Notes under the pieces: generated by a model
What the model was told of the DNA's origin: nothing
The model's database searches: none
The model's input: the letters and a program-made list of their open reading frames with translations, nothing else
DNA from: an uncultured Chloroflexia bacterium
GTDB taxonomy: Bacteria; Chloroflexota; Dehalococcoidia; DSTF01; WHTK01
Length of the DNA stretch: 64,000 bases
Reading direction: 5' to 3'
NCBI GenBank assembly: GCA_963711035.1
Contig: CAVQCN010000003.1
Span: forward strand, 398,290-462,289
Program-made: the position numbers and the translations under genes
Shown: piece by piece, positions 2,817 through 43,740 of the stretch
Layout: the number at the start of each line of letters is the position of its first letter
How positions within the stretch are numbered: the first letter of the stretch is position 1

Positions 2817-3776
2817 CTAAACGTCGATCAGGACCTTGATCACGTTGTCTTCGCGGCTGGCGAACTGCCGGAAGGCTGCGTCCACGTCGTCGAACTTGTA
2901 GCGGTGCGTGACCATGTACGACAGGTCGATGCCGCCGCGCGCCGCCAGGTCGACGGCCGCCTGCACGGAGGGCACCACGTCGTTGGAGCGGCGGCTGTTG
3001 GTGACGACGATGGTCGGCAGCTTGTTGTACATCGTGAACCAGTCGAAGACGATCGGACCATCGCCGTGCGGCATGCCGAAAACGATGGCAGTGCCCTGCA
3101 GGCGCAGGATGTGAAACAGATCGTTCATGGTCTCGGCGTGGCCGCAGGCGTCGATCGCGACGTCGACCATCTCGCCCTTGGTGAGCTCGGAGACGGCTTC
3201 GACGAGGTCCTGCTTCTGGGGGTTGATGCCCGCCGTCGCTCCCAGGCTCTTCGCCACATCGAGGCGGTGGTCAACCACATCAGTGACGATGACCTCGCTG
3301 GCGCCACTGCGTACGAGCAGGTCGGTGAAGATGAGACCGATTGGGCCCTGGCCCAGCACGGCGACGCGCTTGCCAAGCACGCTGCCGGCGCGCTGCAGGG
3401 CGTAGATCACGGTGCCGACCGGCTGGCACATGACGCCGAGGTCGGGGCCGATGCTGTCCGGAATCGGTATCAGCAGCTCGGGCGGTACGGAGGAGTACTC
3501 GACCAGGCCGCCGGCGTAGGCGAGGGAGATGACGCGCTGGCCCTTCTGGAAGACGCCGTTGTAGCTTTCCTCGACGATGCCGGCGCACTCGTGGCACGGA
3601 TAGCCGGTGCGGCCGGGGTAGTCCTCTTCGGGCAGGACGCGCTCATAGGTCAGCAGGTCGCTGCCGCAGATCGAGAGGTGCTCCATGCGGATCAGCACCT
3701 CGCCCGGCTGGGCCTTGGGCATGTCGATGTCGAGAACTTCTAGCCGCTGGGGGCCTACGATGCGCGCTGCCTTCAT
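2817..3776 (-). CDS. Zn-dependent alcohol dehydrogenase, MDR family (threonine/sorbitol dehydrogenase-like)
   Basis: 319 aa. Has the CHECAG catalytic-zinc region (here CGSD...CHECAGIVEE) and a GxGxxG Rossmann motif (VLGQGPIGL). Confidence 0.8.
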   Translation of the reverse strand: MKAARIVGPQRLEVLDIDMPKAQPGEVLIRMEHLSICGSDLLTYERVLPEEDYPGRTGYPCHECAGIVEESYNGVFQKGQRVISLAYAGGLVEYSSVPPELLIPIPDSIGPDLGVMCQPVGTVIYALQRAGSVLGKRVAVLGQGPIGLIFTDLLVRSGASEVIVTDVVDHRLDVAKSLGATAGINPQKQDLVEAVSELTKGEMVDVAIDACGHAETMNDLFHILRLQGTAIVFGMPHGDGPIVFDWFTMYNKLPTIVVTNSRRSNDVVPSVQAAVDLAARGGIDLSYMVTHRYKFDDVDAAFRQFASREDNVIKVLIDV

Positions 3777-4000: not shown

Positions 4001-5233
4001 TTACTCGGGCCGCTTGGTGAAGGCGTTGGGGATGATCGCGGGCGGGCGAGCCTGCGGGTCCGTCTGAGCCGCGGCCAAGCGGTCGCGGACGTCGTAGAGC
4101 ACGGCGCCGAGACGCGTCTCGTGGAAGAGCCAGCGGTTCAACGTCGCCGAGTCGGGTGCGTGCTTGCCGGGCTGCATCGAGACGGCCTCGAGGTAGTAGG
4201 TCTTGAGGTCATCCGCGGCGGCGCGCAGGGCGGCCGGCACCGGCAGGCCCATAGCGGCGGGCGGCTCCACGTCGGCGCCCTTCGCGTAACTCGCGACGAA
4301 GCCTGCGAGCTGGTCGATGGCGCCGATCTCCACCTTGCTCAAGCCGAAGAGGGTGCGGTCGTGGACGTGGATGAACTCGTCATACCACGGCTTCAGCTGG
4401 CCGATCTCCGCCATGAGGCCGTCGATGGTGCGCTGGACCTCATCTTCGCTCTCGTCCACGGGCGGCAGCGGCAGCATGCAGGCCCAGTCCTCGTCGGAGT
4501 CGGCGGCGACCGGCGCGTCCTTGGGGAAGTCGTGCAGTACCGGTCCCGACGTCTCTTTCAGGGTGTCGAGCAGGGCGTGCAGCACCTCCATCTGGAACTC
4601 GGGCTCGTTCGGCGGCCCCAGAGGACGGCCCAGCTCGAACGGCACCCAGAGGGCGCGAGGCGGCTTCATCTTCTCCGTCTGCTCGCGGATCAGGCTGATA
4701 CCGGCGGTCGAGACTCCCTGCGCCTCGATGTGGTGGCTGAGCGTACCCACGGTACGCGTGCAGAGCGGTCAGACGGGTGTGAGGAGCACGACGTCGACGC
4801 CGTCCTCCTTCAACAACCTCCCTACTTCGGGGCCGGCTTCCACCAGGCGCGTGTAGTCCGTCGCGCCCATGAATGAGTAGTGCCACCGGGCCAGCGAGCC
4901 GATCTCGCCGCGCTCCAGCAGCGTGCGCAGGTGCGGCAGCGGGAAGACGACGTTGACGTCCTGCTGGAAGCCGGTGCGATCGAAGTTGATGCTGAGGTGG
5001 CTCATGATGAGCTCATCCGGGTCGATGTCGCCGGGGATGATGCGGTAGTCGGAGGCGCCGGGATTGAACCGCGCGTCCGAGCGGCGATGCAGGCCAGCCG
5101 TCGTGACGAGGGCGACGCGCGCCGTCTTGAGATCCGGGGGCGCCGGCGTCCACGGCGCCGAGTCGAACTCGGGCAGTGGCAGGCGGAGATAGCCTTCGGC
5201 GACTTCGGGGGGAAGGGACGAGAGCCTGACCAC
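4001..5233 (-). CDS. GrdB/PrdB-family selenoprotein B-like protein with in-frame UGA (Sec) at 4769-4771; GTG start with AGGAGG SD
   Basis: Track ORFs 4769..5233 and 4001..4750 lie in the same frame, separated only by a TGA and 6 codons. The joined protein reads ...KEDGVDVVLLTPV-U-PLCTRTVGT..., matching the Sec region I recall in GrdB (...AAILTST-U-GTCTRCGATM..., recalled from memory, not checked). Flanking similarity to the GrdB C-terminal half is extensive. Confidence 0.7.
4737..4763 (-). promoter_or_regulatory. Candidate bacterial SECIS hairpin downstream of the UGA
   Basis: mRNA UGA CCG CUC UGC AC-GCGUACC-GUG-GGUACGC: a 7-bp stem begins 11 nt after the UGA with a G/U-containing apical loop, plus a possible 3-bp lower stem. 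Confidence 0.5.
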
Positions 5234-5313
5234 GAGACCTCCTCAGGTGTCTTACTCAGCGACTCTACCACATGAGGCGCTGGGAAAAATACACCGCCAA
5301 CTTCGTTCCTTCC

Positions 5314-6319: not shown

Positions 6320-6545
6320 TGAAAAACCCCGGCTCGAAGCTGGTGCCGGGGCGACAGTCACCCTCGTAGGGCGAGTCTCGGTCCGGGCCTTGTACCTCGA
6401 AGGCTCCTGACTTGTTGCTAAGGGCTGGCGACCTGGCTCTCCTCCACCCGAGCGGAGGACTACAGTTGCGGGACAGCGCCGGACTTCGACCGGCTTCGCA
6501 TTTACCCTCCCCGACCTTAATCGGGACCAAGGCACCCTTGAGCGT
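6320..6545 (-). ncRNA. Cobalamin (B12) riboswitch with expression-platform intrinsic terminator
   Basis: Minus-strand RNA contains GGUGCC..., AAGCCGGUCGAAGUCCGGCGCUGUCCCGCAACUGUA (core consensus) and a B12-box-like AGCCAGGUCGCCAGCC. A terminator hairpin CCCCGGCaccagcuucgaGCCGGGG+UUUUU lies at 6322-6351, then the SD AGGAG and ATG of the binding-protein gene. Confidence 0.8.
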
Positions 6546-6649
6546 TTCTCTTCAGTTGTGAAGGTTGCTGGCCGGATGATAGGCGGCAGGCCGATCTTCG
6601 TCAATGGCCGGTCGATGCGCTACTCTCGGGGGAGCGAAACGGAGGAAGC

Positions 6650-9784: not shown

Positions 9785-10384
9785 CTACCCGAGCGCTTCT
9801 TTCGTGCTCGGCGTCTGGCCGGCGCGGCGCGGGTCGATGCGCGTGGCGTTGCAGAGGGCGCGCCCCAGCGCTTTCGCCATCGCCTCGGCTTTGTGGTGGT
9901 CGTTGACGCCGGCGAGGATGCGCGCGTGCAGGTTGAAGCGGCCCTCGTCTGCCAGCGACTGCAGGAAGTGCTCGACGAGGTCGCAGGGCAGCTCGCCGAC
10001 GCTGACGCCGGACCACGAGACGCCGATCACGGCGTAGCCGCGGCCTGAGAGGTCGACGGCCACCTGCGCCAGAGCTTCGTCCAGCGGCACGAGCGCGTCG
10101 GCCATGCGCACGATGCCGCGGCCGTCGCCGACCGCCGCGGCCAGCGACCGCCCCAGGGCAATGCCAACGTCTTCGGTCGTGTGGTGCGGGTCGATGTGCA
10201 GGTCGCCGGTGGCCTTGACGCTGATGTCAAAGATGCCGTGGCGCGCGATCTGCGAGACGATATGGTCGAGCATGCCGATGCCCGTCGAGATGTCGGCCTG
10301 GCCGCTGCCGTCCAGGTCCCAGGTGACCTCGACGCTGGTCTCGCGCGTCTCGCGTTTGTAGGTGCCGGTGCGTTCTGATGCCAT
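9785..10384 (-). CDS. hisB: Imidazoleglycerol-phosphate dehydratase
   Basis: 199 aa; conserved HisB motifs (TRETSVEV, DPHHTTED, GINDHH). Confidence 0.9.
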   Translation of the reverse strand: MASERTGTYKRETRETSVEVTWDLDGSGQADISTGIGMLDHIVSQIARHGIFDISVKATGDLHIDPHHTTEDVGIALGRSLAAAVGDGRGIVRMADALVPLDEALAQVAVDLSGRGYAVIGVSWSGVSVGELPCDLVEHFLQSLADEGRFNLHARILAGVNDHHKAEAMAKALGRALCNATRIDPRRAGQTPSTKEALG

Positions 10385-10435
10385 AGTCGTACTAGAGTCG
10401 CCGTACGGGCGCGAAAACGCAATCGGTCATTTCGC

Positions 10436-11545
10436 CTAATACCCTGCCCTGACGCTGGCGACAGCCTCGCGCAGGGCGGCAAGCACACGGTCCGTCTGCT
10501 CGGGCCGGCCAACGCTGAAGCGCAGGTGGTTCTGCAGTAGCGGCGTATCGAAGTAGCGCACCATGATGCCTCGATCCATCAGCGCCGTCTGCAGCCGCTT
10601 CGCCTCGACGCCGTCGATGCGGCAGAGGATGAAGTTAGCGCGTGACGGATACACCGTGAACCCGGTCAGCAGCGCCAGCCCCTCCGCCAGGCGCTCGCGC
10701 TCGGTCTGCACCGCCGCGACGCGCTCCTGCAGCAGCGCCAGGTCTTCGAAGCTGGCCAGGGTCGCCACTTCGGCCGCGACGTTGATGCTGTAGGGCTGCT
10801 TGATGCGCATCGCGATCTCGGCGACGGCCGGATCGCAGATCATGTAGCCGATGCGCAGACCGGCGAGGCCTGCCCACTTGCTCAGCGTACGGATGATGAT
10901 CAGGTTTGAGCGCTCTCGTACCAGGTTGACGTAGCTCTCACCGGCGTACTCGGCGTAAGCCTCGTCGACCACGACAGGCAGGCCGGTGGCGAGCAGCGCC
11001 TCCAGCTCCTGACGAGTCAGCAGGTTGCCGGTCGGGTTGTTGGGTGAGACGGCGAAGATCAGGCGTGTGCCCTGCGCCGCATCGAGCGACGCCTCGATGT
11101 CCAGCGCGAAGTCCTCGCGGCGCGTGACGTGAACCGCCTCCTGGCCCAGCGTGCCGGCGAGGAAGGAGTACATGCCGAACGTGGGCGGGAAGTCGAGCAG
11201 CGCCTGTCCGGGGCCGACGAAGAGGCGGCAGCAGAGCTCGATGAGCTCATCGCTGCCCGCGCCGGGCACGATCCACTCGGGGCCGTAGCCAACATAACGG
11301 CCCACAACCTCCCGCAGCCGCATCTGCTCCGGATCGGGGTAGATGTGGTAGCTGCGGTAGGCCGCCAGCGCTTCGAGCGCCTTCGGGGCCGGACCGTAGG
11401 GGTTCTCGTTGGCGTCCAGCTTGTCGATGCGCTCTACCGACACACCCAGGCGCGAGGCGAGCGCCTCCGGCGGCTGAACGGGTACGTAGGGCGGCGCCGA
11501 CAGTAGATGCGGCTGTACGAGATCGAGGAGACGGTCCGAGCTCAT
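10436..11545 (-). CDS. hisC: Histidinol-phosphate aminotransferase
   Basis: 369 aa; class II aminotransferase (LDANENPYGP, KW pyridoxal-lysine region). Confidence 0.9.
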   Translation of the reverse strand: MSSDRLLDLVQPHLLSAPPYVPVQPPEALASRLGVSVERIDKLDANENPYGPAPKALEALAAYRSYHIYPDPEQMRLREVVGRYVGYGPEWIVPGAGSDELIELCCRLFVGPGQALLDFPPTFGMYSFLAGTLGQEAVHVTRREDFALDIEASLDAAQGTRLIFAVSPNNPTGNLLTRQELEALLATGLPVVVDEAYAEYAGESYVNLVRERSNLIIIRTLSKWAGLAGLRIGYMICDPAVAEIAMRIKQPYSINVAAEVATLASFEDLALLQERVAAVQTERERLAEGLALLTGFTVYPSRANFILCRIDGVEAKRLQTALMDRGIMVRYFDTPLLQNHLRFSVGRPEQTDRVLAALREAVASVRAGY

Positions 11546-12871
11546 TGCGGCAGGCGCTCTTCGATGGCGCGCGCGTGGCCGACGAAGCCCTCGGCGCGGG
11601 CGATGACGGCGCCGGCCGGGCCGAGGTCGAAGACGCCATCGGAGCTGAGGTCGATGACGGTGCTGAACTTGAGGAAGTCCTGCACGCTGAGCGGCGACGC
11701 GAAGCGCGCGGCGCCGCCCGTCGGCATGACGTGGCTGGGTCCCGCCGTGTAGTCGCCGATCGCTTCCGGCGACCCGTCGCCGATGAAGACGCCGCCGGCG
11801 TTGCGCACCAGGCCTGCCAAGCGGTGCGCGTCTTGCGCCAGGATGCAGAGGTGCTCGGGCGCGTACTCGCTGGCCAGCTCGACCGCCTCTTCGATGGTCG
11901 CGGCCACGACGGCTCCGCCACGATTGGCGAAGGCGGCACTGGCCACATTGCGTCGCGGCAGCACGGCAATGCGCTGCTCCAGCTCGGCGGCGACGTTGTC
12001 AGCCAGCTCCCGCGAGTTCGTTATGAAGATGGGCGAGGCGAGCTCGTCGTGCTCTGCCTGCGCCAGCAAGTCGGCGGCGCACAGCGCCGGGTCGGCCGTC
12101 TCGTCCGCCACGACCACCGTCTCCGTGGGGCCGTAGAGCGAATCGATGCCCACATCGCCGAAGACGGCGCGCTTGGCCAGCGTCACAAAGATGTTGCCGG
12201 GTCCGCAGAATCTTGTCGACGCGCGGGAAGCTCTCCGTGCCGTAGGCGAGCGCCGCGACGGCCTGGGCGCCGCTGGCCGCGAAGACGCGGTCGGCGCCGG
12301 CCATGGCGGCTGCTGCCAGCTTGACCGGCGGCACGACGCCGTCCGGCCCCGCCGGGCTGACCAGGACGAGGTTCTCGACGCCGGCGACCTTGGCCGGGAT
12401 CAGCGTGTGCAAGACGGAGGACGGGTACACCGTCAAAGTGCCGGGGGCGTAGACGCCGACGTTGCGGATGGCGCGCACCTGCACGCCCAGGCCCTCGTCG
12501 ACGTAGGAGGCGAGCACGCGGCGCATCTGCCCCTCGTGGTAGCGGCGCACGCGGCCGGCCGCGAACTCCAGCGCGTCGCGCAGCTGCGGCTCGATGGCGT
12601 CGACGGCGGCCTCGACCTCGGCGCGCGGGATCTCGAAGCGCGGGTACGGGAAGCCATCGAAGACCTCGCAGTAGCGGCGCACGGCCGCGTCACCCTCGCG
12701 ACGCACATCGGCGATGATGCGCTGCACGCTCTGGCCAGCGGTAAGCTCCTCGCCAAAGACGGCCGCGGTCATCGAGCGGCCCGCTTCGCCCAGCTCAAGC
12801 TCGGATGCTGCGCCGCGGCGCAGGATGGTGCGTCGTGCTTCGTCGGCGCCGACGAAGATACGCAGCGTCAT
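11542..12871 (-). CDS. hisD: Histidinol dehydrogenase, interrupted by an apparent 1-nt insertion frameshift near 12196-12210
   Basis: Track ORFs 11999..12871 (N-part, ...AQAVAALAYGTESFPRVDKI) and 11542..12186 (C-part, TLAKRAVFGDVGID...) are adjacent frames. The expected ...DKI(L)GPGNIFVTLAKR... is recovered by removing one base from attctgCggaccc. Confidence 0.8.
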
Positions 12872-12941
12872 AGCGCGCCGCCATCTCGAACGGCGCAGGC
12901 GCTGGTCGGAGCCGGGCCTGGTCGTAGCGCTGTGATAGGGC

Positions 12942-13886
12942 TTACTCGATGATCTTGTTCAACGGGTACTCGACGATACCGTGGGCGCCCGCCTTCTTCA
13001 GCCGGGGCACGATCACGTGAACGAGGTCCTCGAGGACGATCGTCGTGACGTCCACCCACGCCGGGTCGGAGAGCGAGGCGACGGTGGGCTTGTCGAGGGC
13101 GGGCAGGATGGCGAGGACGCTGTCCAGATCGTCTCGCGCGACGTTCATCGAGAGCCAGACCTTGCCTTCGGCCGCGAGCGCGCCGCTGAGCATCAAGGCA
13201 ACGTCCTCGATCTTCTGACGTTTCCAGTCGTCCTGCATGGCCTGCGGGCTGGCAATGAGACGAGGCCTGCTCTCGATGACGGTGTCGATGATGCGGAGAC
13301 CGTTGGCCCGCAGAGAGTTCCCGGTGACCGTCGCCTCCATGATCGCGTCGGCGAGGAGCGGAACTTTGACCTCCGTGGCGCCGTACGAGTACTCGACGAG
13401 GGCGTTGACGCCACGCGCTTCGAGAAACTCTCTTGTCAGCGACACCAGCTCCGTGGCAATCCTCTTGCCTTCGAGGTCGCGCACCTCGTGGACGGGGGAG
13501 TCATTCGGCACACAGAGCACCCAGCGCGTGAAGAAGCCGCTGGTCTTCGAGTTGACCTCGAGGATCTCGACTACGTTTGCTTTGGCCTCGCGAATGAGGT
13601 CCAGGCCCGTGAAGCCCGCGTCGATGAGGCCGTCCTGGATGTAGCGGGGCTGCTCTTGCGGCCTCACCAGCATGCACTCCATTTCGGGGTCGTCGACGCT
13701 GGGATGATAGGAACGGCTGGATACATTCATGTTGTAGCCGGCTTTGCGGAACAAGTCCACAGCCGCCTGCTGCAGGTTGCCGTTGGGAATGGCCAACCGG
13801 ATCCGCCGGGACTCCACGATGCGTTCCTCGTAGAAAAAAGAGCGCCTGCCGAGTGGCAGGCTGCCAGGGTACTGCCTTTCGCACAT
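12942..13886 (-). CDS. hisG: ATP phosphoribosyltransferase, long form
   Basis: ~300 aa with catalytic and C-terminal regulatory domains. The true start is probably a few codons inside the track ORF (RIRLAIPNGNL...). Confidence 0.85.
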   Translation of the reverse strand: MCERQYPGSLPLGRRSFFYEERIVESRRIRLAIPNGNLQQAAVDLFRKAGYNMNVSSRSYHPSVDDPEMECMLVRPQEQPRYIQDGLIDAGFTGLDLIREAKANVVEILEVNSKTSGFFTRWVLCVPNDSPVHEVRDLEGKRIATELVSLTREFLEARGVNALVEYSYGATEVKVPLLADAIMEATVTGNSLRANGLRIIDTVIESRPRLIASPQAMQDDWKRQKIEDVALMLSGALAAEGKVWLSMNVARDDLDSVLAILPALDKPTVASLSDPAWVDVTTIVLEDLVHVIVPRLKKAGAHGIVEYPLNKIIE

Positions 13887-13999
13887 AGTACCGCAGCCCC
13901 TCAGGAGCGTCCAACTGAGGTGACGGTCCGTCGTTGCGGGGAGCGGCAGCGACGAAGCAATCCCGGGCTCGGCGGCGTTATCTCTCAGACGGAGCGTTG

Positions 14000-14037
14000 T
14001 CCGAGGGGAGATTCTTCGCTCCGCTCAGAATGACAGC
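14000..14037 (-). repeat. Copy B of the ~38-nt interspersed repeat (upstream of hisG, downstream of purC)
   Basis: The reverse complement reads TGTCATTCTGAGCGGAGCGAAGAATCTCCCCTCGGAC. Confidence 0.8.
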
Positions 14038-14087
14038 GCTGGTGGCGGCGGCCGGCCTTGCCCGACTGCACGATTGCGGCCGCCGCG

Positions 14088-14987
14088 CTAGAACCGCAGC
14101 AGCTCGCGGCCGGTGAGGCGCCGGTAGGCCTCGTGGTAGCGCTCGCTGGTCTTGAGGACGATGTCGTCGGGAAGGGTGGGCGGCGGCGGCTCGCGGTTCC
14201 AGCCTGAGTCGAGCAGCCAGTTGCGTACGAACTGCTTGTCGAAGCTGGGCTGTGATCGGCCCGTCTCGTACTGGTCGGCGGGCCAGAAGCGGGACGAGTC
14301 CGGCGTCAGCATCTCGTCGATGATGATCGGCTCGCCGTCGACGATGCCGAACTCGAGTTTCGTGTCGGCGATGATGATGCCGCGCTCGCGGGCGTACTGC
14401 AGGGCGTACTTGTAGATCGCCAGCGTGCGGATACGGATGGCGTTGGCGACCTCGGCGCCGACGAGGTCGATCAGCTCATCCGAGCTCATGTTCGTGTCGT
14501 GGCCAACTTCTGCTTTCGTCGTCGGTGTGAACAGCGGCTCCGGGAACGCCTCCGATTCGACCATGCCGGCCGGCATGCGCAGGCCGCAGACGCGCCCCGT
14601 CTCCTGATACTCGGCCCATGCTGAGCCCGTGAGGTAGCCCCGCGCGATGCACTCCACGTCGAGGCGCTGTGCCTTGCGCACGATCGTGCTGCGGCCGAGC
14701 AGCTCCGGCGGCAGCGCGAAGGGGAGCTCGTCTGCCTCGGAGCCGTCGGCGAGGCGCAGGAAGTGATTCGGCACCACGTCCTCGGTGAGCTGGAACCAGA
14801 AGGCAGACATCTGGCTGAGCACGGCGCCCTTGTCCGGGATGCCGTTGGGCAGGATGGAATCGAAAGCGGAGATGCGGTCCGTGGCGACGATCAGCAGGCG
14901 GCCATCGCCGAGGTCGTACGTGTCGCGCACCTTGCCGCGGTATGTGCGGTCGGGCAGCTCGGTGTCAAGCAGGACTTGCGGGCTCAT
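14088..14987 (-). CDS. purC: Phosphoribosylaminoimidazole-succinocarboxamide synthase (SAICAR synthetase)
   Basis: 299 aa; typical PurC N-terminal (YRGKVRDTYDLGDGRLLIVATDRISAFD) and ATP-grasp-like motifs. Confidence 0.9.
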   Translation of the reverse strand: MSPQVLLDTELPDRTYRGKVRDTYDLGDGRLLIVATDRISAFDSILPNGIPDKGAVLSQMSAFWFQLTEDVVPNHFLRLADGSEADELPFALPPELLGRSTIVRKAQRLDVECIARGYLTGSAWAEYQETGRVCGLRMPAGMVESEAFPEPLFTPTTKAEVGHDTNMSSDELIDLVGAEVANAIRIRTLAIYKYALQYARERGIIIADTKLEFGIVDGEPIIIDEMLTPDSSRFWPADQYETGRSQPSFDKQFVRNWLLDSGWNREPPPPTLPDDIVLKTSERYHEAYRRLTGRELLRF

Positions 14988-15777
14988 TGTCGGACACTGC
15001 TTTCTTTGCTTTGAGATCGTAGAACATCAGCGTCGCCGAGACGGCGAGGAACGAAAACGTCGCCAGGTTGGGCAGTGACGAGAACAGGATACCACCGATA
15101 CCCGGTATCGCTGCCTGCAGGATGCCCGCCAGCAGGCTGGTCGGGATGCCGATGACGAGGCCTACCACCGCCGATCGGCCGAAGGTGCGCCACCAGTTGT
15201 CCTTGACCAGCGCTGCGCTGTAGGCGAGCGCATCGCGGCCCTTCTGACCGTCGATCATGATCGCCTGGATCAGGAACAGCCAGCAGATGCCGCGGTGGAT
15301 GGCGAAGACGATGCCCGCACCGATGATGATGGAGGCGAAAACGACGCCAACCCAGCCCAGCGTGACCACGAGAGCCAGCCCCGCGCCGAGACAGCCCAGC
15401 ACGACGAACATGATGATGGCGAGCGCCTTGAACTCCGCCAGCATGAGGTCCGCGAAGTGGTCCTGGGCGGCGTCGAGCGCGTCGCCGACCGAGGTCTCCT
15501 TGCGCTGGTCGAGCTGCAGCAGGCGAAAGCAGACACCGGCCGTCACCAGCTGCTCCGCCGCAAAGAGAAAGGGCAGGCCGCCGAGGAAGATGGCCTCAAT
15601 CAGGACGGTGTTTTCCTGTCTCGGAAGCTGAGCAAGCAGCTGCGTCGCCAGGCTGACGAGCAGTGCCGGCGCCACGATCATGAAGAGCGAGGGCATGTCG
15701 CCGAAGAACATGGCGAACGAGTCCTGGATCAGCTCGCCGAGCGGTCGCTGCCGGTTGAGCAGTGGGCGTGGATTCAT
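14965..15777 (-). CDS. Hypothetical polytopic membrane protein
   Basis: 270 aa with multiple TM segments and no recognisable family. Overlaps the purC start by 23 nt. Confidence 0.5.
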   Translation of the reverse strand: MNPRPLLNRQRPLGELIQDSFAMFFGDMPSLFMIVAPALLVSLATQLLAQLPRQENTVLIEAIFLGGLPFLFAAEQLVTAGVCFRLLQLDQRKETSVGDALDAAQDHFADLMLAEFKALAIIMFVVLGCLGAGLALVVTLGWVGVVFASIIIGAGIVFAIHRGICWLFLIQAIMIDGQKGRDALAYSAALVKDNWWRTFGRSAVVGLVIGIPTSLLAGILQAAIPGIGGILFSSLPNLATFSFLAVSATLMFYDLKAKKAVSDNEPASPA

Positions 15778-15838
15778 GTGCGAGTCTCCCTGCGGATTCT
15801 CGCAGATGCCGGCGGCCGGGGTCGAGGCGGGTTCGGGG

Positions 15839-17194
15839 TCAGGCTTCGAGGAGGCCGACGCGGGCGAAGCTCTTGTCGACCTCGCGGGTGAAGTAGCCGT
15901 AGTCGAAGAGGGCGTCGAGCTCGGCCGGCGTCAGCAGCTTCTGCACGGCGGACTGCTCGCCGATCGTCTCGCGGAAGGGGCGCCGCTCGGCCAGCGCCTG
16001 GTGGGCGGCGTACTGGACAATGGGGTAGGCGGTCTGGCGCGCCATATCCTTCTCGACCAGCGTGAGCAGCACGCGCTGCGAGAAGACGACGCCGTGGGTC
16101 AGATTCATGTTCTCCAGCATGCGCTGCGGATAGACGACCAGCCCCCGCACGATGCCGGTGAACAGCGTCAGCATGTAATCCAGCGCCAGGCAGGAGTCCG
16201 GGATGATGACGCGCTCGACGGACGACTGGCTGATGTCCCGCTCGTGCCAGAGGGCGACATTCTCAAGGGCGGCGTTGGCGTTGGCGCGGAGGATACGGGC
16301 CAGGCCGCAGATGCGCTCGCACTTCTCAGGGTTGCGCTTGTGCGGCATCGAGCTGGAGCCCTGCTGGTGCAGGCCGGAGGTCGAGCCGCCCTCGATGGGG
16401 CGCAGGTGCAGGTCCATGCCGCCGGTGCTGAACGGCTCCTCGGCTTCGCCGACCTCGGTGCGCTGCAGGTGACGGATCTCGGTGGCGAAGCGCTCCAGCG
16501 AGGCGCCGATCAGGGCCAGCGTCTGCAGGTAATGGGCGTGGCGGTCACGCGAGACGATCTGGGTGCTGACCTTGTCGACGCCGAGGCCGATGCGCTCGCA
16601 GACGCGCTCTTCCAGCTCCGGTGGCACCGTCGCGTGGCTACCCACCGGCCCGCTGAGCTTGCCAACGGCGATGTCTGCGCGCGCAGCTTCCAGGCGCTCC
16701 CGGCCGCGGCGCACCTCGTCGAGCCAATTGATCAGCTTGAGGCCGAAAGTGATGGGCTCGGCGTGCATGCCGTGCGTGCGGCCCATGCAGATCGTGTCCT
16801 TGTACTCGAGGGCACGAGAGGCGATCGCCGCGTCGAGCTGCTGCAGGTCTTCGGCGATAAGCTCGGCGGCCTCGACCATGCGCAGGGCGGTGGCCGGGTC
16901 CTCCGTGTCGTACGAGGTGAGGCCGAGGTGCAGCCAGCGCTGCTCCTCGCCCAGGCTGTCGTTCACGGAGCGCAGGAATGCATTCATGTCGTGGTGCATC
17001 TCGCGCTCGTAGCGGTCAATGTCCTCGACACGGAAGGAGGCGTTGCGGGCGATCTTGTCGGCGTCCTCGCGCGGCACGGCTCCGAGGTCGGCCCAGGCCT
17101 GTACGGCCGCGATCTCCACCTTGAGCCAGGAGGCGAACTTGTTCTCCTCCGACCAGATGCGGGCCATTTCGGGACGGGAATATCGGGATATCAC
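15839..17194 (-). CDS. purB: Adenylosuccinate lyase
   Basis: 451 aa; fumarase/lyase class II signature (GSSSMPHKRNP). Confidence 0.9.
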   Translation of the reverse strand: MISRYSRPEMARIWSEENKFASWLKVEIAAVQAWADLGAVPREDADKIARNASFRVEDIDRYEREMHHDMNAFLRSVNDSLGEEQRWLHLGLTSYDTEDPATALRMVEAAELIAEDLQQLDAAIASRALEYKDTICMGRTHGMHAEPITFGLKLINWLDEVRRGRERLEAARADIAVGKLSGPVGSHATVPPELEERVCERIGLGVDKVSTQIVSRDRHAHYLQTLALIGASLERFATEIRHLQRTEVGEAEEPFSTGGMDLHLRPIEGGSTSGLHQQGSSSMPHKRNPEKCERICGLARILRANANAALENVALWHERDISQSSVERVIIPDSCLALDYMLTLFTGIVRGLVVYPQRMLENMNLTHGVVFSQRVLLTLVEKDMARQTAYPIVQYAAHQALAERRPFRETIGEQSAVQKLLTPAELDALFDYGYFTREVDKSFARVGLLEA

Positions 17195-17287
17195 AGCTTA
17201 GTCTACTCCGGCGCTGAGGAGCCGAACAACGGCGGGACGACATCGGGCAACCGGGCAGTCCGGCAACGACGTCGCATCATCCGCCAG

Positions 17288-17460
17288 CGTTGTCATTCTG
17301 AGCGGAGCGAAGAATCTCCCTCGGTCACGGCTCGACCGACCGAGATGCCGCTTCTCGCATGACGAAGGGCGGCGTTGTCATTCTGAGCGGAGCGAAGAAT
17401 CTCCCCGGACGACGCGCCGCCCGTGAGACGGCGGCCCCGACCGAGATTGCTTCGTCGCTA
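17288..17460 (+). repeat. Two tandem ~85-bp units, each the ~38-nt repeat core (C1 17288-17326, C2 17373-17410) followed by a variable hairpin
   Basis: Cores CGTTGTCATTCTGAGCGGAGCGAAGAATCTCCC(TCGGTC / CGGAC). Each is followed by CGACCGAGAT(T)GC... containing short hairpins (CTTCTCG...CGAAG, CTTCGTC...GACGAAG). Confidence 0.75.
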
Positions 17461-17491
17461 TCGCTCCTCGCAAGGACGAAGGACGACGCTC

Positions 17492-18570
17492 CTACTCCTG
17501 CGCGATCGTCACACGTCGCCCCGTCTTCGCCGACTCACGCACGGCATCGAGGATCTGCTGGTTGCGCCAGCCGTCGTAGAAGTTCGGCGCGCGTGACGTG
17601 CCGGTCTCGATCCCCCTGAGGAAATCGCGCACCTGGAGGCGGAAAGGCGGCAGCCGCTCGTCGCGCTCGTCCACGATCGGACCCAGGCGGGCCGGCACCT
17701 CGAGGTCGTGGCGCTCGCTCTCGCCCGCCTTTGCGCCGCTGAGGCTGCCGTGGGCCGGAGGGTTGGGGCCGACCTGGGGTGCGAAGATCGTGCCCGCGTC
17801 GCCGTAGATTTCCACCGAGGCGGCGGAGGGGAAGAGGCCGGAGCGGCTGGAAATCATCTGGGCGGAGCCGCCCTTCACGAAGTTCAGCGTGAACGTGAAG
17901 GTGTCATCATCGAAGGCATCGACGGCCTCGTCCCGAGAAAGGTTCTGCGAGTAGTTCGAGAGCTCGCCGCTGACAGACTCGACCTCGCCGAACCAGTCGC
18001 GCAGGCAGTCGATGTAGTGGGAGCCGAGCCCGAAGAGCATGCCGCCGCCGGGCACACCGCCCATCCGGCGAGGCGGCTGGTTCGGGTTGGGCGGCGGAAA
18101 GTTGAGAAGCAGCTTCATCAGGCAGAAGCGCAGGTTGCCGACGTACCCGGCGTCGATCAGCTCCTTGGCGGCGCTGCGGCCGGAGGAGTAGCGGAACTCG
18201 TGGGCGATGACCGCCGTCAGGCCGCTTGCCTCCGCGGCGTCGTACATCTCGCGTGCCTCGGTCTCGTCCACGGCGAAGGGCTTCTCGCAGATGATGTGCT
18301 TCTTCGCGGCGATCGCCTTCATCACCATCTCGTGATGGAGGTTGGCGGGCGTGACGATGCTGACGGCGTCGAGTCCGTCCAGCTTCAGCATCGCGTCGTA
18401 GTCGGTGAAGGTGTGCGGGATGTTGAACTTCTTCGCTGCTTCCTCGGCGCGCTCCGGCCGGCGCGTGCAAACGGCGACGACTTCGAGGCCCTCCGACTGA
18501 AATGCGGGGATGTGGACGGTCGCGCCGAAGCCGACGCCGGCGACGCCGATCTTGAGGCTGTCGCGTGTCA
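17492..18570 (-). CDS. Gfo/Idh/MocA family NAD(P)-dependent oxidoreductase
   Basis: Starts at MTRDSLKIGVAGVGFGA... (Rossmann fold), with the EKP motif. The 150-aa N-extension in the track is rejected as low-complexity with no RBS. The start coordinate is approximate (within 1 nt). Confidence 0.75.
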
Positions 18571-18599
18571 TGTTGCGGTCCCTTCTTGCTAGGAGTTGT

Positions 18600-19352
18600 C
18601 TACTGGCTGACTGCTGCTTCGCGTTCCGGCGCCGGCAGGATGTCCACCTGCTGGCCGGCGTGGAAGATGGTGCGGCTGCCGTCCTGATCGAAGACGACGG
18701 CGCGTTTGTGGCCCATGACGTGCCAGCCGCCGTCGTCCCACACGAGGGCGGTGTCTTCGTCGACGCCGACGACCTTCTGGCCGGGCTGTACGAGACGGAG
18801 AGCGCGCTGCAGAAACTCGGGACGGCGCGCCTCCATGCGGTCGAAGTGGGGCAGGGCGCGCAGCGGCGCCGCCAAACCGAGACCGGTAGGCGGTTGCGTG
18901 CCCTCAATCTCCGGGTCGTGGGTGTGGACGTTGAGCACGCCGAGGCCGCCGCTGGAGCCGGCGACGATGGTGCCGGCGCGGTTCGCCGCTTCGAGGGCTC
19001 GCCAGGCCAGCGTGTCATGGAACGCCTCGGCCAAGTAGGTGGCGCGGCCGCCGGAGAACCAGACGAGGCCCGCCTCGGCGATGCGTTCGGAGTGCTCCGG
19101 CTGGTTGGCGTCGTGCTGATCGCGGATTCGTACGGGGGTTGCCTCGACGCCGTGGCGCTGGAAGTGAGCGGCGCCCATACGCTCCCAGCGGTCCATGACG
19201 TCTTCTCCCTCAGGCGCGCAGGCCGTGGCGATGAGCAGCACGCTGCGGCCGCCGAGCCGCTGGATCAGATGGCGGTCCACGATGTCCATGGTCGGCGTGT
19301 ACTCGCCGGAGCCGGCCAGGACCAGGGTCCCCAGGGTTTGCATTGCAGTCAT
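18600..19352 (-). CDS. Peptidase S51 / cyanophycinase-like (class I glutamine amidotransferase-like fold) protein
   Basis: Sequence ...LVLAGSGEY...VWFSGG...; the likely start is the internal Met (MTAMQTLG). Confidence 0.55.
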   Translation of the reverse strand: MTAMQTLGTLVLAGSGEYTPTMDIVDRHLIQRLGGRSVLLIATACAPEGEDVMDRWERMGAAHFQRHGVEATPVRIRDQHDANQPEHSERIAEAGLVWFSGGRATYLAEAFHDTLAWRALEAANRAGTIVAGSSGGLGVLNVHTHDPEIEGTQPPTGLGLAAPLRALPHFDRMEARRPEFLQRALRLVQPGQKVVGVDEDTALVWDDGGWHVMGHKRAVVFDQDGSRTIFHAGQQVDILPAPEREAAVSQ

Positions 19353-19522
19353 GGGTTCAGCGCCTCCCCGCGCCTGGCTAAGAATGTAGCGCTCGGCTGG
19401 CAGCGGCGGCAACGTTGTCTTGATCACGAGCGAAAAACGCGATGCGTTTCACTGTCTATGCAGCGCCGGCTCCTTTACTATCGTTTCATGCAGGCCGGGT
19501 TTCCCAACCGGGGGCAGCGCTC

Positions 19523-21490
19523 ATGAGAGACCTACCCGCTGACGGCGCCATTCCGCCGCGGGTTGTCATCGAGCACGTCCAGCCAGAGGTCGATGGCGGT
19601 CGATTCGCCGTGAAGCGCGTCGAGGGCGATCTCGTGCGCGTCGAGGCCGACATCTTCGCCGACGGCCACGACGAGCTGGACGCGCGTCTCTTCTATCGCA
19701 AGGCCGGCGAGCCGCATTGGCACGAAACGGCGATGACGCTGATTAACAACGACCACTGGTTCGGCGAGTTCACCGTCGAAGAGCTCGGCGAGTACGTCTA
19801 CCGCCTCACCGGCTGGGTGGACCACTTCGCCACCTGGCGCCGCGACTTCCGCAAGTGGTTGGAGGTGCGCCAGGACATCGAGTCGGAGCTGCTCGTGGCG
19901 GCGGGCCTCGTGCGGAATGCGGCGGCCAACGCCTCCGGGCAGGACGCGAGGCTGCTGGCGGAGCGCGCGGCCGCCCTGGCCGCCGCCACGGACGTCGATA
20001 CTCGCGCCGAGCTGGCGCTGGACGACTCGTTGGCCGATCTGATGGTGACCTACGGCGATCACGGCACGATTACCGAGTACGACCGCGGCCAGCGCATCTT
20101 CGTGGACCGCGAGCGGGCGCGCTTCGGCACCTGGTACGAGATGTTCCCGCGCTCGACGTCGCCGGATGAGAGCCGGCAGGGCACCTTCCGCGACTGTATC
20201 GCGCGCTTGCCGTACGTCAGCGACATGGGCTTCGACGTCGTCTACTTCCCGCCTATCCACCCTATCGGTGAGACGAACCGCAAAGGGCGCAACAACTCGC
20301 CGATCTCGCAGCCGGGCGAGCCGGGCAGCCCCTGGGGCATCGGCTCGGCGGCGGGCGGCCACAAGGCCATTGACCCGAAGCTCGGCACACTCGAGGACTT
20401 CCGGGCGCTCGTGGCGGCAGCGCAGGATCGCGGTATGGAGGTGGCGCTCGACATAGCCTTCCAGTGCTCGCCGGACCACCCGTACGTCAAAGAGCAGCCG
20501 CAGTGGTTCCGGCACCGGCCGGACGGCTCGTTGCGCTACGCCGAGAACCCCCCGAAGAAGTACGAGGACATCTACCCGATTAACTTCGAGACGGAGGACT
20601 GGCAGGCGCTCTGGCAAGAGTTGACCAGCGTGATCCTGTTCTGGGCGGAGCAGGGCGTGCAGATCTTCCGCGTCGATAACCCACACACGAAGTCGTTTGC
20701 CTTCTGGGAGTACGCGATCGCAGCCGTGAAAGCGCAGCACCCGGGCGCCATCTTCCTGGCCGAGGCGTTCACGCGACCGCGCATCATGTATCAGCTGGCC
20801 AAGCTGGGCTTTACGCAGTCGTACACGTACTTCACCTGGCGCAACGACCCCAGGGAGATGAACGAATATCTCACCGAGCTCACGACCACCGAGGTGAAGG
20901 AGTACTTCCGCCCCAACTTCTGGCCCAATACGCCAGACATCCTGCATGAGGTCCTGCAGACGGGCGGGCGCCCCACCTTCCTCATGCGCTACGTCCTCGC
21001 CGCGACTCTGACGGCGAACATCGGCATTTACGGGCCGGCGTACGAGCTCATTGTCAACGAGCCGCGGGAGCCGGGCAGCGAGGAGTATCTGCACTCGGAG
21101 AAGTACGAGGTCAAGCACTGGGACCTGGATGCACCAGATAGCCTGGCGACGTTCATCGGCCTCGTGAATCGCATCCGGCGCGACAATCCGGCGCTGCAGT
21201 GGAACGAAACGTTGCGCTTTCTCGACAACAGCAACGGCATGATCCTCGCTTACACCAAGACGAGCCGTGACGGCTCGAATGTCGTGCTCGCCGTCGTGAA
21301 CATGGACCTCTTCAACCGCCAGGAGGTCAGCTTCCGCCTGCCACTAGCGGAGCTTGGCCTGCCGACCGACAATCCGTACGAGGTCGAAGATCTGCTGCAC
21401 CAAACGCGGTTCACATGGTCCGGCGAGTGGCAGACCGTTTCTCTCGACCCGGCAGAGCTTCCGGCCCTGATCTTCAAGCTGAATCCGTAG
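19523..21490 (+). CDS. glgE: Alpha-1,4-glucan:maltose-1-phosphate maltosyltransferase
   Basis: ~655 aa GH13_3 protein with GlgE-specific N-terminus (...RVVIEHVQPEVDGGRFAVKRVEGD...). An alternative start is 19442. Confidence 0.85.
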   Translation: MRDLPADGAIPPRVVIEHVQPEVDGGRFAVKRVEGDLVRVEADIFADGHDELDARLFYRKAGEPHWHETAMTLINNDHWFGEFTVEELGEYVYRLTGWVDHFATWRRDFRKWLEVRQDIESELLVAAGLVRNAAANASGQDARLLAERAAALAAATDVDTRAELALDDSLADLMVTYGDHGTITEYDRGQRIFVDRERARFGTWYEMFPRSTSPDESRQGTFRDCIARLPYVSDMGFDVVYFPPIHPIGETNRKGRNNSPISQPGEPGSPWGIGSAAGGHKAIDPKLGTLEDFRALVAAAQDRGMEVALDIAFQCSPDHPYVKEQPQWFRHRPDGSLRYAENPPKKYEDIYPINFETEDWQALWQELTSVILFWAEQGVQIFRVDNPHTKSFAFWEYAIAAVKAQHPGAIFLAEAFTRPRIMYQLAKLGFTQSYTYFTWRNDPREMNEYLTELTTTEVKEYFRPNFWPNTPDILHEVLQTGGRPTFLMRYVLAATLTANIGIYGPAYELIVNEPREPGSEEYLHSEKYEVKHWDLDAPDSLATFIGLVNRIRRDNPALQWNETLRFLDNSNGMILAYTKTSRDGSNVVLAVVNMDLFNRQEVSFRLPLAELGLPTDNPYEVEDLLHQTRFTWSGEWQTVSLDPAELPALIFKLNP

Positions 21491-21496
21491 GAATCG

Positions 21497-24846
<3,350 letters not shown>

Positions 24847-24847
<1 letters not shown>

Positions 24848-33960: not shown

Positions 33961-35133
33961 TTACCGTGCGGCGGCCACGGGCCGCATGCGCGCGACGATG
34001 TCGGGCAGCACGGCCAGCAACTGGTCGAGCTCGGCGTCGGTGTTGGCGTCCGAGAGCGTGAGGCGCAGGCCGCTGACCGCGTCGGGCATGGAGAGGCCCA
34101 TCGCGAGCAGAACGTGGGAGGGCTCCCAGGACGACATGCCGCACGCGGCGCCGGCGCTGGCCGCGACGCCGGCCTTGTCCAGGGCCAGTACGAGGTCGTC
34201 GCCGCGTACGCCGCGAATGCTGATGTTGACGTTGTTGGCCAGCCGCTCGGTCGGGTGGCCGTTGAGGCGCGAGTCGGGCACTGCCGCGAGGATGCGCTCG
34301 ATCAGCTGGTCGCGCAGCCGCAGGCAGGCCTCGACCTTGGTCTCGCGCTCGGCGGTGGCGATGGTCAGCGCCTTTGCCAGGCCGACGATGGCCGCGACGT
34401 TCTCGGTGCCCGCGCGGCGCTGTCGCTCCTGGCCGCCGCCGGTGATCTGCGAGACGAAGGGCACGCCGCGGCGCAGCACGAGCAGGCCGGAGCCCTTGGG
34501 ACCGCCAAACTTGTGGCCCGAGAGGCTGAGCAGGTCGACGCCCAGCGCGGCGACGTCGAGGGGCAGCAGGCCGGGCGCCTGCACCGCGTCGGTGTGGAAG
34601 GGGATGCGCTTGCGTAGCTCGCGGGCCCGTTCCGACACGAGGCGCGCTGCTTCCGCCACGGGCTGCAGTGTGCCGACCTCGTTGTTGGCCAGCATGACCG
34701 AGACGAGGACTGTGCGGTCGGTCACGGCGGCGGCGACGTCCGCGGGGTCGGCGCGGCCGTTATTGTCGACGGGCACGTAGGTGACCTCGAAGCCGAACTG
34801 CTCCAGGTAGTTGCAGGTATGCAGCACCGCGTGGTGCTCGACCTCGGTGGTGACGATGTGATTGCCGGCGCGCGCCTTCATCTGGGCGAAGGCGACGCCG
34901 CGCAGCGCCGTGTTGATCGATTCCGTGCCGCCGCTGGTGAAGACGATGTCGGAGGGGCGGCAGTTGAGGATGCTCGCGACCTCTTTGCGCGCGTCGTCGA
35001 TCGCCTTCTGGGCCTGTCGTGCCAGCGAGTAGGTGGCGGACGGGTTCCCGAAGCTGCCGCTGAGGTAGGGCAGCATCGTCTCCAGCACTTGGGGATGGAG
35101 GGGCGTCGTTGCGGCGTTGTCGAGGTAGATCAA
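33961..35133 (-). CDS. Cysteine desulfurase (NifS/IscS, class V aminotransferase)
   Basis: 390 aa; SGHKFGGPKG pyridoxal-lysine motif and catalytic-Cys loop (GAACGMSS). Confidence 0.9.
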   Translation of the reverse strand: MIYLDNAATTPLHPQVLETMLPYLSGSFGNPSATYSLARQAQKAIDDARKEVASILNCRPSDIVFTSGGTESINTALRGVAFAQMKARAGNHIVTTEVEHHAVLHTCNYLEQFGFEVTYVPVDNNGRADPADVAAAVTDRTVLVSVMLANNEVGTLQPVAEAARLVSERARELRKRIPFHTDAVQAPGLLPLDVAALGVDLLSLSGHKFGGPKGSGLLVLRRGVPFVSQITGGGQERQRRAGTENVAAIVGLAKALTIATAERETKVEACLRLRDQLIERILAAVPDSRLNGHPTERLANNVNISIRGVRGDDLVLALDKAGVAASAGAACGMSSWEPSHVLLAMGLSMPDAVSGLRLTLSDANTDAELDQLLAVLPDIVARMRPVAAAR

Positions 35134-42037: not shown

Positions 42038-42104
42038 GCCACTCGTTGGGCTAAAGAGAACCGGGAGCATCGCTTGCTCCCGGTTCTCTTGTCTCGGACG
42101 CTGC

Positions 42105-42512
42105 TCAGTCCCGCTTGGGACCAAAGAAGGGCATTTTGCGCGGATAATCCTTGGCATACGTGTTGCCCGGCGGCATCGCGTCCATCTGGTTGTAGCGGCC
42201 GATGACCTCGACCCAGCGTGAGAGGTAGCTGGATGTGACCTCGTAGCGGAAGAAGCGCGCCTTGCCGCGAATCTCCGGGTTCGGCTCGTTCTCCGAGAAG
42301 TGGTCGATGAGCTTGCCGCGCAGGCCGTAGCGGGCACGGCTACCGGCGTAGCCGACGTAGAGCACGCGCATCGACTCGTCGGCGATCTCGTAGACGCCGT
42401 TGCTGCCCGAGAGCTTGGCGGCGGCGGGCGTCCAGAGGGGCGTGCCCTCGTAGTTGCGCCAATCCTTCCATGGCATGCGAATCTGCCAGCTGGCGCGGTC
42501 GACGTTGGTCAT
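42105..42512 (-). CDS. Hypothetical protein with GIY-YIG-like motif
   Basis: 135 aa from ATG at 42510-42512; GVYEI...VLYVGYAG...LRGKLIDH. The track N-extension is rejected. Confidence 0.4.
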   Translation of the reverse strand: MTNVDRASWQIRMPWKDWRNYEGTPLWTPAAAKLSGSNGVYEIADESMRVLYVGYAGSRARYGLRGKLIDHFSENEPNPEIRGKARFFRYEVTSSYLSRWVEVIGRYNQMDAMPPGNTYAKDYPRKMPFFGPKRD

Positions 42513-43740
42513 GGTGCAGTCCTTTCGACTGGGAGAACGGTGGCGCCGGCCTCGACAAGGGCGTCGATCTCCGCCTCGGTCATGCCGAGGAGGTCGCGCA
42601 GCACCGTTTCGGTGTGTTCGCTTTGTTGCGGGCCGCGTCGTGAGACGATGCGTGAGTGACGCGCCGTCCAGCCGGCGCGGCTGACGCGCAGAGTTTGGCC
42701 GTCGCCCATGTCGATTGCGTTGAAGGCGTTGCGATGCAGGTACTGAGCGTCCTCCGCGATCTCGGCAGTACTCAGTACGGCACCGGCCGGCACGCCGGCC
42801 TGCTGCAGCAGGTGCATCGCCTCGATGTGGTCTTGTGTCGCCGTCCAGGCCGTGATCTCGGCGTCGAGGCGGTCCTCGTTGCGCTTGCGGTCGACGGCTG
42901 TAGCGAAGGTGGGCTCGGTGGCGAGGTCCGGACGGCTCATAACGTTGCACAGCGCCGTCCATTCCGCATCGTTCGTCGCCGTGATCGCGAGCCACTTGTC
43001 GTCGCCGCGGCAGGGGTAGATCGAGTGCGGCGCCAGCATCGGGTCGCGGTTTGCCATGCGCTGGTCGACGCGGCCGTTGAGCGCGTAGTCGAGCACGTAC
43101 TCGCCGACGAGCTGCGTCTCGCCGTCGCGCATCGCCACCTCGATCATCTGCCCCTCGCCCGTCTTGCGTCGGTGGTAGAGGCCGGCCATGACGGCAAGGG
43201 CGGCGTGGACGCCGGCGTTGTAGTCGCAGTAGTAGTTGCCGGGCTTGAGGGGAGGCTTGTCCGGGTAGCCCGTCAGGAACGAGAGGCCGCTCATAGCGTC
43301 GATGCCGGGGCCGTAGGAGGTCATGTTGGCGCGCGGGCCGGTCCGTCCGAAGGCGGGCATGGACACGGAGATGATGCCGGGGTTGATCTTCGCCAGATCT
43401 TCGTACTCCAGGCCCCAGTTACGCATGACGCGCGGGCTGAAGTTCTCGATGACGACGTCGCTGATGGCGACGAGGCGTTTGATTACGTCACGCGCTTCCG
43501 CCGTGCCCATGTCGAGAGCAATACCGAGCTTGCTGCGGTTGCGCTCCTGGAAGCTGGACCAGTGGTTCGTGCTGCCCCAGCCATCGGCCGGCGCCGTGGG
43601 GCGGGCTGCGCGTGTGCTCGACCTTGATCACCTCGGCGCCGAGCTCGCCCAGCAGCGACGTGCCGACCGGGCCTGCGACCACGATCGTGAAGTCGAGGAC
43701 GCGGACGCCAGCCAGTGGCGGTACGGAAGCGTCGACGCGC
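42509..43740 (-). CDS. CoA transferase family III (CaiB/BaiF) protein with apparent frameshift near 43590-43640
   Basis: The N-terminus MRVDASVPPLAGVRVLDFTIVVAGP...GAEVIKVE is in one frame. The rest (...FQERNRSKLGIALDMGTAEARDVIKRLV...) is in the adjacent frame. ATG overlaps the upstream TGA. Confidence 0.7.

Follow-up and report, generated by a model that had tools for sequence, protein, structure and literature searches.

In Escherichia coli, the selenocysteine insertion sequence (SECIS) of fdhF is, in its minimal form, a 17-nt element that lies 11 nt from the UGA and spans nt 15–31, counting the U of the UGA as 1. It has a bulged U17 and a loop in which G23 and U24 are contacted by SelB (reviewed in PMC8659212). 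A broader consensus for bacterial SECIS elements, as used by bSECISearch, allows a loop of 3–9 nt, a stem of 4–16 bp, 16–37 nt between the UGA and the loop, and a minimum free energy (MFE) of −7.5 kcal/mol or lower; the loop has a G in its first two positions, usually followed by G or U (PMC13188914). Here we describe a hairpin that begins 11 nt downstream of an in-frame UGA in a 64-kb stretch of DNA (the window) from an uncultured Chloroflexia bacterium (contig CAVQCN010000003.1). This hairpin (nt 15–31) is very probably a bacterial SECIS element within the coding region of a gene for a PrdB-like selenoprotein, in which the UGA would encode selenocysteine (Sec).

Two groups of proteins go by the name PrdB. 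The first is a pfam07355 family with a UxxC motif, which is listed as the selenoprotein "proline reductase PrdB" in surveys of marine metagenomes (PMC1088965, PMC2398784). In the Sargasso Sea, with 42 genes, it ranked third in abundance among selenoprotein families (PMC1088965), and the Global Ocean Sampling (GOS) data contain 235 selenoprotein sequences of this family (PMC2398784). The Delta-1 symbiont of Olavius has five copies (PMC1976440). The second is the PrdB of clostridial D-proline reductase (TIGR04483), a 26-kDa Sec-containing subunit that is partnered with PrdA.

The gene in the window resembles the survey family: it shares the Pfam family and the UxxC motif with Sec, and the taxa and habitats of its orthologues match, including the Olavius Delta-1 symbiont (locus L052). 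We conclude that the gene, which is unannotated, adds to a selenoprotein family that is already known, and that its SECIS element is of the usual bacterial type. The parts of the gene and of the hairpin are as follows (nt numbers count from the U of the UGA).

5233..4001, minus strand: PrdB-like selenoprotein gene (GrdB/PrdB superfamily) of 410 codons, with a GTG start at 5233, the Sec codon as residue 155, and a TAA stop at 4003..4001.
5238..5244, minus strand: GAGGAGG that resembles a Shine-Dalgarno motif; it lies 4 nt upstream of the start codon, GTG, as read from the sequence.
4769..4771, minus strand: in-frame UGA, U155 in PV-U-PLC-TR; 12 of 13 full-length homologues have Cys at the aligned position, and 80 of 80 orthologous loci have TGA.
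4760..4762, minus strand: UGC codon of Cys158, which is the resolving cysteine in the redox motif UxxC; all 81 Sec-form sequences have Cys here, as do the full-length homologues.
4768..4758, minus strand: spacer of 11 nt, CCGCUCUGCAC, which separates the stem from the UGA; this segment has no indels across 81 aligned sequences.
4757..4751, minus strand: 5' arm of the SECIS, GCGUACC (nt 15–21), supported by both folds and by covariation among orthologues; its wobble sites (15, 18, and 21) are 89–96% conserved across phyla.
4750..4748, minus strand: apical loop GUG (nt 22–24), which encodes Val; G22 never varies, nt 23 is U in 80 of 81 sequences, and nt 24 varies freely.
4747..4741, minus strand: 3' arm of the SECIS, GGUACGC (nt 25–31), supported by both folds and by covariation among orthologues.
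4737..4763, minus strand: the span proposed in the initial annotation, with a possible lower stem of CUG (4763..4761) and CAG (4739..4737), which we judge to lie outside the element.

The UGA itself is read at 4771..4769 of the minus strand, and the stem comprises seven Watson-Crick pairs closed by a 3-nt loop (4757..4741). The initial annotation, which was made from the sequence alone, had described this perfect 7-bp stem (GCGUACC-GUG-GGUACGC) with its G/U-containing loop, 11 nt past the UGA, and the minus-strand sequence bears it out. It had also suggested folding the RNA, and the hairpin is indeed the MFE structure: both the MFE and the centroid structures contain all 7 bp, whether 63 nt or 121 nt are folded. 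The local energy of the hairpin is −10.8 kcal/mol (21 nt folded). The lower stem of 3 bp is present in the sequence and in one of the MFE structures, but it is absent from the MFE of the 63-nt fold and from the centroid of the 121-nt fold. Across 81 sequences (see below), only 52% of its cells are paired, so we rejected it as a feature of the family. We also considered a terminator, and rejected it: there is no U-run after the stem, and no terminator-like site was reported there.

The hairpin is similar to the fdhF SECIS in several ways. Both lie within a coding region, span nt 15–31 (17 nt), begin after an 11-nt spacer, place the loop 18 nt from the UGA, and have G-U in a small loop. The spacing of 11 nt had been described as the one that SelB-dependent recoding requires. 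The spacing is correct for this hairpin, but as a general rule it does not hold: it applies to the minimal SECIS of E. coli fdhF (PMC8659212), while the general model is stated as 16–37 nt from the UGA to the loop. Measured against that model, the window has a loop of 3 nt that begins with G and then U, a stem of 7 bp, 18 nt from UGA to apical loop, and −10.8 kcal/mol, all of which fall within the consensus. Furthermore, the structure lies in a coding region after an in-frame UGA, homologues have Cys in place of the UGA, and orthologues of the Sec form have kept the structure. Since the model is too permissive for DNA with 65% G+C, agreement with it is necessary but not sufficient.

Several observations weigh against a SECIS element. 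First, hairpins of this general kind are common in the window, which is 65.6% G+C: of 1616 TGA triplets (both strands, any frame), 71% fit a loose version of the bacterial SECIS geometry. Second, the z-scores for folding of the whole segment are unremarkable (−1.0 and +1.05), so the foldability of the region is not unusual. Third, Rfam has no family for the hairpin; searching the whole window at gathering thresholds, and 4650–4850 at E ≤ 10, gave matches at chance level only. Fourth, the hairpin differs from fdhF in two ways. Its loop is a GUG triloop with G-U at nt 22–23, while fdhF has a GGUC tetraloop with G-U at 23–24, and its stem is perfect (G17 pairs with C29), lacking the irregularity at nt 17 (bulge or mismatch) on which E. 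coli SelB depends. Fifth, the homologues with Cys that serve as our control number only seven and are all more distant (33–41% identity). Finally, selA, selB, selD, and the tRNA for Sec (tRNA-Sec) are all absent from the 64-kb window, including 30 further open reading frames (ORFs) that were compared to Pfam.

The first of these points means that agreement with the consensus carries little weight alone, and we rejected the loose geometry as stand-alone evidence. Similarly, because the z-scores do not single out the region, we took significance from comparative data and from recoding tests. A stricter definition is more selective: just 12 of the 1616 TGA triplets (0.74%) have, 16–37 nt away, a loop that starts with G on a stem of 7 or more Watson-Crick pairs, and of those 12, only the TGA at 4771 is in a coding frame on both sides. 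Still, the hairpin alone is weak evidence, and the comparative evidence decides.

We compared the window to the best 80 of 579 confirmed relatives, with one genome per species scanned, for a total of 81 sequences including the window itself. The search was made with close C-terminal fragments, and an alignment that mixed Sec and Cys forms offered no conserved stretch. The orthologues are from Dehalococcoidia and other Chloroflexota, Desulfobacterota, and Alpha- and Gammaproteobacteria, and include the Olavius Delta-1 symbiont (L052) and, among marine Alphaproteobacteria, Puniceispirillum. The closest relative is a Dehalococcoidia metagenome-assembled genome (MAG), with 54% identity. All 80 orthologous loci have an in-frame TGA at the same codon, and from the TGA onwards 48 nt align without gaps across the 81 sequences.

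These comparisons bear on whether the UGA is a true stop codon, with the locus being a pseudogene, a sequencing error, or two genes, the second of which would start at the GUG of the loop, possibly by translational coupling. The public gene calls do split the gene: the 154-aa and 249-aa proteins are separate entries on one contig of 793,867 bp, and are not annotated as a selenoprotein. Most relatives in the databases, too, are fragments, about 250 aa long, with their start at the loop's Val codon. And the assembly seems error-prone; apparent frameshifts split three more of the window's genes (listed below), so the possibility of a true stop deserved checking. But across several phyla, 80 of 80 independent assemblies share the TGA at this codon, which excludes an error or a recent pseudogene. 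The reading frame and the high G+C content at third codon positions (GC3) run on past the UGA: the ORFs 5233..4769 (154 codons) and 4750..4001 are in one frame, with a GC3 of 0.89 upstream of the UGA and 0.92 downstream. Each Cys-form homologue is one polypeptide, about 400 aa long, that has Cys here as part of a CxxC motif. Furthermore, the GTG start at 5233 is preceded by GAGGAGG, while no Shine-Dalgarno motif is found in the sequence before the GUG at 4750, where the gene callers start the 249-aa fragment. We therefore consider a true stop to be highly unlikely. A reassigned genetic code, with UGA as a sense codon, was rejected: 25 of the 49 crude gene calls in the window end with TGA as a true stop, more than with any other codon, so a reassigned code does not explain the in-frame UGA.

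The matches in a search of 5.8 billion proteins were of two kinds: full-length homologues (about 400 aa) and numerous fragments (about 250 aa), which cover the part after the UGA only. Among the full-length homologues and the window, the motif is PV-[U/C]-P-x-C-T-R. The 120 best protein matches to 4001–4750 are mostly fragments of about 235–270 aa that are either named "hypothetical protein" or nameless, and in the alignment, four fragments start at, or just past, the Val codon of the SECIS loop. To judge from this, public gene calls systematically break the proteins of this family at the UGA.

We also noticed that one orthologous locus, from a Dehalococcoidia MAG from a depth of 4000 m (L014), has an apparent 1-nt insertion about 55 nt past the TGA (around 3000–3010 of that locus) when compared to the near-identical L008. 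The insertion shifts the frame, and the tblastn match begins only at query residue 11.

The hairpin is kept in the same register across the 81 sequences, with covariation, which is what the initial annotation had proposed to look for among orthologues. In the stem columns (15–21 and 25–31), 87.8% of cells are in standard pairs, and five of the seven pairs are changed on both sides. All five measures exceeded those from 500 of 500 shuffles. If the 3' arm is slid by 1–3 columns, just 28–50% of cells are paired. RNAalifold independently found the pairs 16–30, 18–28, 19–27, and 20–26; its consensus opens the closing C-G pair, to give a 5-nt loop on a 6-bp stem. When folded locally, the family has a median energy of −10.7 kcal/mol, and 91% of the 81 sequences are at −7.5 kcal/mol or below. 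The apical loop is centred on nt 22–24 in 80 of 81 sequences. It starts with GU in 80 and with GG in one, so that G22 is invariant.

The family consensus is GCGCGCC-GUN-GGCG[C/G]GC. The window differs from it by two double compensatory changes, from C-G to U-A and from G-C to A-U, which combine Ala to Thr on both arms with synonymous changes of Arg (CGC to CGU) and Gly (GGC to GGU). At the pair 17–29, 46 of 81 sequences have a G-G mismatch, so the usual form in the family is 4 bp, a 1x1 mismatch, and 2 bp, and the window is a perfect variant. In those 46 sequences, nt 17 is unpaired, as is the bulged U17 of fdhF, but it is a G opposite G29; the position is the same, although the feature is not universal. 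Unlike fdhF, the family does not have a conserved lower helix. By analogy, we suggest that the hairpin of the window would work like an fdhF-type element, without two features that are specific to E. coli.

Could the hairpin be a by-product of the coding sequence? The encoded peptide, T-R-A/T-V-G-G/A/T-L, is conserved, and if it is written in G+C-rich codons then it might fold by accident, with no function of the RNA. The codons CGC GCC GUN GGC GCG are nearly palindromic, and the stem lies wholly inside strongly conserved codons. The DNA is rich in G+C and prone to form hairpins, as seen in the 71% of TGA triplets with a model-like hairpin and in the unremarkable z-scores. However, four kinds of evidence argue against a by-product, which we find hardly credible.

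First, the third codon positions of the stem (columns 15, 18, 21, 27, and 30) are 89–96% conserved, with entropies of 0.23–0.61 bits, across lineages of very different base composition, even those with low G+C content. Wobble positions outside the stem are free to vary: the entropy is 1.75 bits for the Val codon of the loop and 1.77–1.92 bits for four-fold sites in the flanks.

Second, few synonymous sequences form such a hairpin. Among 20,000 synonymous versions of T-R-T-V-G-T-L, drawn with local codon usage, 0.115% were as stable as the hairpin in the window, and 0.13% kept 7 of 7 pairs. Where the U-A and A-U pairs form, the gene uses minority codons: CGU, which makes up 14% of Arg codons, and GGU, which makes up 6% of Gly codons.

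Third, amino acids change in compensating pairs, such as the Ala to Thr on both arms with the synonymous changes at Arg and Gly.

Fourth, Cys forms with the same or nearly the same peptide (L086, L084, and L087) do not form the hairpin. We compared the DNA of seven Cys-form homologues, and they have just 2–5 of the 7 pairs, with energies of 0 to −3.8 kcal/mol, and the hairpin in none. For instance, L086 encodes CSRTVGTLSH, which is close to the peptide in the window, but its sequence gives 4 of 7 pairs, at −2.6 kcal/mol, and the picture is similar for L084 and L087. The energies of the Sec and Cys forms do not overlap (medians of −10.7 vs. −2.8 kcal/mol; p = 3e-6, Mann-Whitney test), although the p-value is merely indicative since the sequences are phylogenetically related and there are only seven Cys forms. 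With the Cys forms as an internal control, these comparisons of sequences indicate that the RNA structure is selected on top of the coding sequence.

If the hairpin is a SECIS element, then we propose that it acts as follows. SelB, carrying GTP and Sec-tRNA(Sec), would bind the apical G-U with its C-terminal domain, by analogy with fdhF from E. coli. With the UGA in the A site, the hairpin, 11 nt downstream, would sit at the mRNA entrance of the ribosome. The tethered SelB would then deliver Sec-tRNA(Sec), in competition with release factor 2, after which the ribosome would melt the hairpin and translate it (as T-R-T-V-G-T-L). The product would be a protein of 410 residues with an active site, U155-P-L-C158, that forms a selenenylsulfide redox pair. 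We infer both the binding of SelB and the insertion of Sec from this analogy. Presumably, the source genome encodes selA, selB, selC, and selD.

Another way to continue past the UGA would be read-through without Sec, such as by a near-cognate tRNA for Trp or Cys, with stimulation by the hairpin. This might occur if the machinery for Sec had been lost, and no gene of that machinery is in the 64-kb window. Stable downstream hairpins can stimulate read-through in other systems. However, the invariant G of the loop followed by U or G, together with a geometry like that of fdhF, is specific to SelB-type elements (PMC13188914, PMC8659212). Also, the UGA falls on the catalytic U/C of a redox motif, and the use of Sec is known in this family (PMC1088965, PMC2398784). 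When a lineage loses Sec decoding, the UGA normally becomes UGC or UGU (PMC1794560). And in two genomes, tRNA-Sec adjoins the orthologue. Overall, we think that read-through without Sec is very improbable.

Those two genomes are alphaproteobacterial MAGs, in which a tRNA-Sec with the anticodon UCA lies about 2.7 kb upstream of the orthologue (at 227–320 of L036 and at 125–218 of L050). This is indirect support for the decoding of the UGA as Sec. Between the tRNA-Sec and the orthologue, both loci have a conserved ORF of 530–558 aa (270–1946 of L036 and 370–1962 of L050), which has no match in Pfam.

With the SECIS element recognized, what are now two hypothetical proteins become one selenoprotein of 410 residues that has a UxxC active site, and the source organism is flagged as a likely user of selenium. 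The alignment of the family could also be a benchmark for SECIS predictors, which do poorly in G+C-rich genomes, or a teaching case of an RNA structure under selection inside a coding sequence. It does not change the understanding of how Sec is decoded.

As to the protein, it matches the Pfam family GRDB (PF07355) with 43 bits, compared to a cut-off of 22; residues 18–152 align to positions 206–345 of the 347 in the profile. The best match in NCBIfam is PrdB (TIGR04483; E = 1.3e-35). Residues 26–228 align to positions 18–221 of the 238 in that profile, with the UGA inside the alignment, so as in clostridial PrdB, U155-P-L-C158 lies within the PrdB-like region. But the score, 122.9 bits, is well below the equivalog cut-off of 300. 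And unlike the 26-kDa clostridial subunit, the protein in the window has 410 residues, with a C-terminal extension of about 180 residues that is mostly helical.

The genomic context is different as well. Beyond the gene itself and an artefact from an antisense ORF, no family of neighbours was shared by more than 7 of the 81 loci within 3 kb to each side, which argues against a prdA-type operon, although PrdA was not sought with a dedicated profile. In the window, the neighbours of the selenoprotein gene encode a Peripla_BP_2 protein and a zinc-dependent alcohol dehydrogenase (ADH). The missed cut-off, the helical extension, and the lack of a recurrent neighbour do not support membership in the true PrdB of D-proline reductase, and the protein is probably a different enzyme.

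An AlphaFold2 model of a Cys-form homologue (P0004, 405 aa) is confident, with a predicted local distance difference test (pLDDT) score of 88.2 and a predicted template modeling score (pTM) of 0.89. The model shows an alpha/beta domain at the N terminus, followed from about residue 268 by a mostly helical C-terminal domain. Comparing this model to chains in the Protein Data Bank (PDB) gave no match at E ≤ 1e-3. The top weak matches were B12-binding photocobilin proteins (E = 5.5e-3), with template modeling (TM) scores of 0.21–0.30 and a root-mean-square deviation (rmsd) of about 18 Å; for the model, this resemblance is probably just a generic Rossmann- or flavodoxin-like one. A sequence search against PDB found nothing.

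Upstream of the selenoprotein gene is a gene for a BtuF-like protein, which is itself preceded by a riboswitch:

6604 to 6576, minus strand: match to a sigma-70-like promoter, before the riboswitch.
6406–6554, minus strand: cobalamin riboswitch (40.6 bits, compared to a cut-off of 31.5).
6341 to 6325, minus strand: terminator-like hairpin, after the riboswitch.
6258 to 5314, minus strand: Peripla_BP_2 (BtuF-like) gene, which ends 80 nt before the selenoprotein gene.

No terminator-like site was found between the BtuF-like gene and the selenoprotein gene, and it is possible that they are co-transcribed. The BtuF-like gene was not found beside the orthologues. On the other side, the downstream ADH gene and a gene for a PNPOx-like protein are shared by just one of the orthologue loci (L001). 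We considered that the 410-residue protein might be a stand-alone selenoenzyme, with a PrdB-like alpha/beta part and a helical domain of about 180 residues, that acts without PrdA and is co-transcribed with the BtuF-like gene behind the cobalamin riboswitch. This combination is unlikely to be right in full. If it were, then co-transcription behind a B12 riboswitch would link the use of selenium and the use of B12.

In the rest of the window, three genes on the minus strand are split over two frames, and a gene for tRNA-Gly is present:

11542–12871, minus strand: hisD; positions 12–193 of Histidinol_dh are in the ORF 11999–12871 and positions 201–411 are in the ORF 11542–12186.
42509–43760, minus strand: family III coenzyme A (CoA)-transferase; positions 1–36 are in 43488–43760 and positions 71–366 are in 42509–43510.
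44948–46238, minus strand: acyl-CoA dehydrogenase; the N-terminal and middle domains are in 45399–46238 and the C-terminal domain is in 44948–45586.
49434–49509: tRNA-Gly(UCC).

The three split genes look like indels in the assembly or pseudogenes. The regions 9785–24847 and 28036–54433 contain housekeeping genes: hisG, hisD, an aminotransferase, the gene for imidazoleglycerol-phosphate dehydratase, purC, and purB, as well as genes for GlgE, a TreS-maltokinase fusion, Mfd, peptidyl-tRNA hydrolase, a class A penicillin-binding protein, and DnaE. A class V aminotransferase (33961–35133) is similar to NifS or selenocysteine lyase by family only. Between a convergent pair of genes, for enoyl-CoA hydratase (plus strand, ending at 42037) and for the CoA-transferase (minus strand, ending at 42509), is a perfect inverted repeat of 16 bp with a 5-nt loop (at about 42054–42090), which may be a bidirectional terminator.

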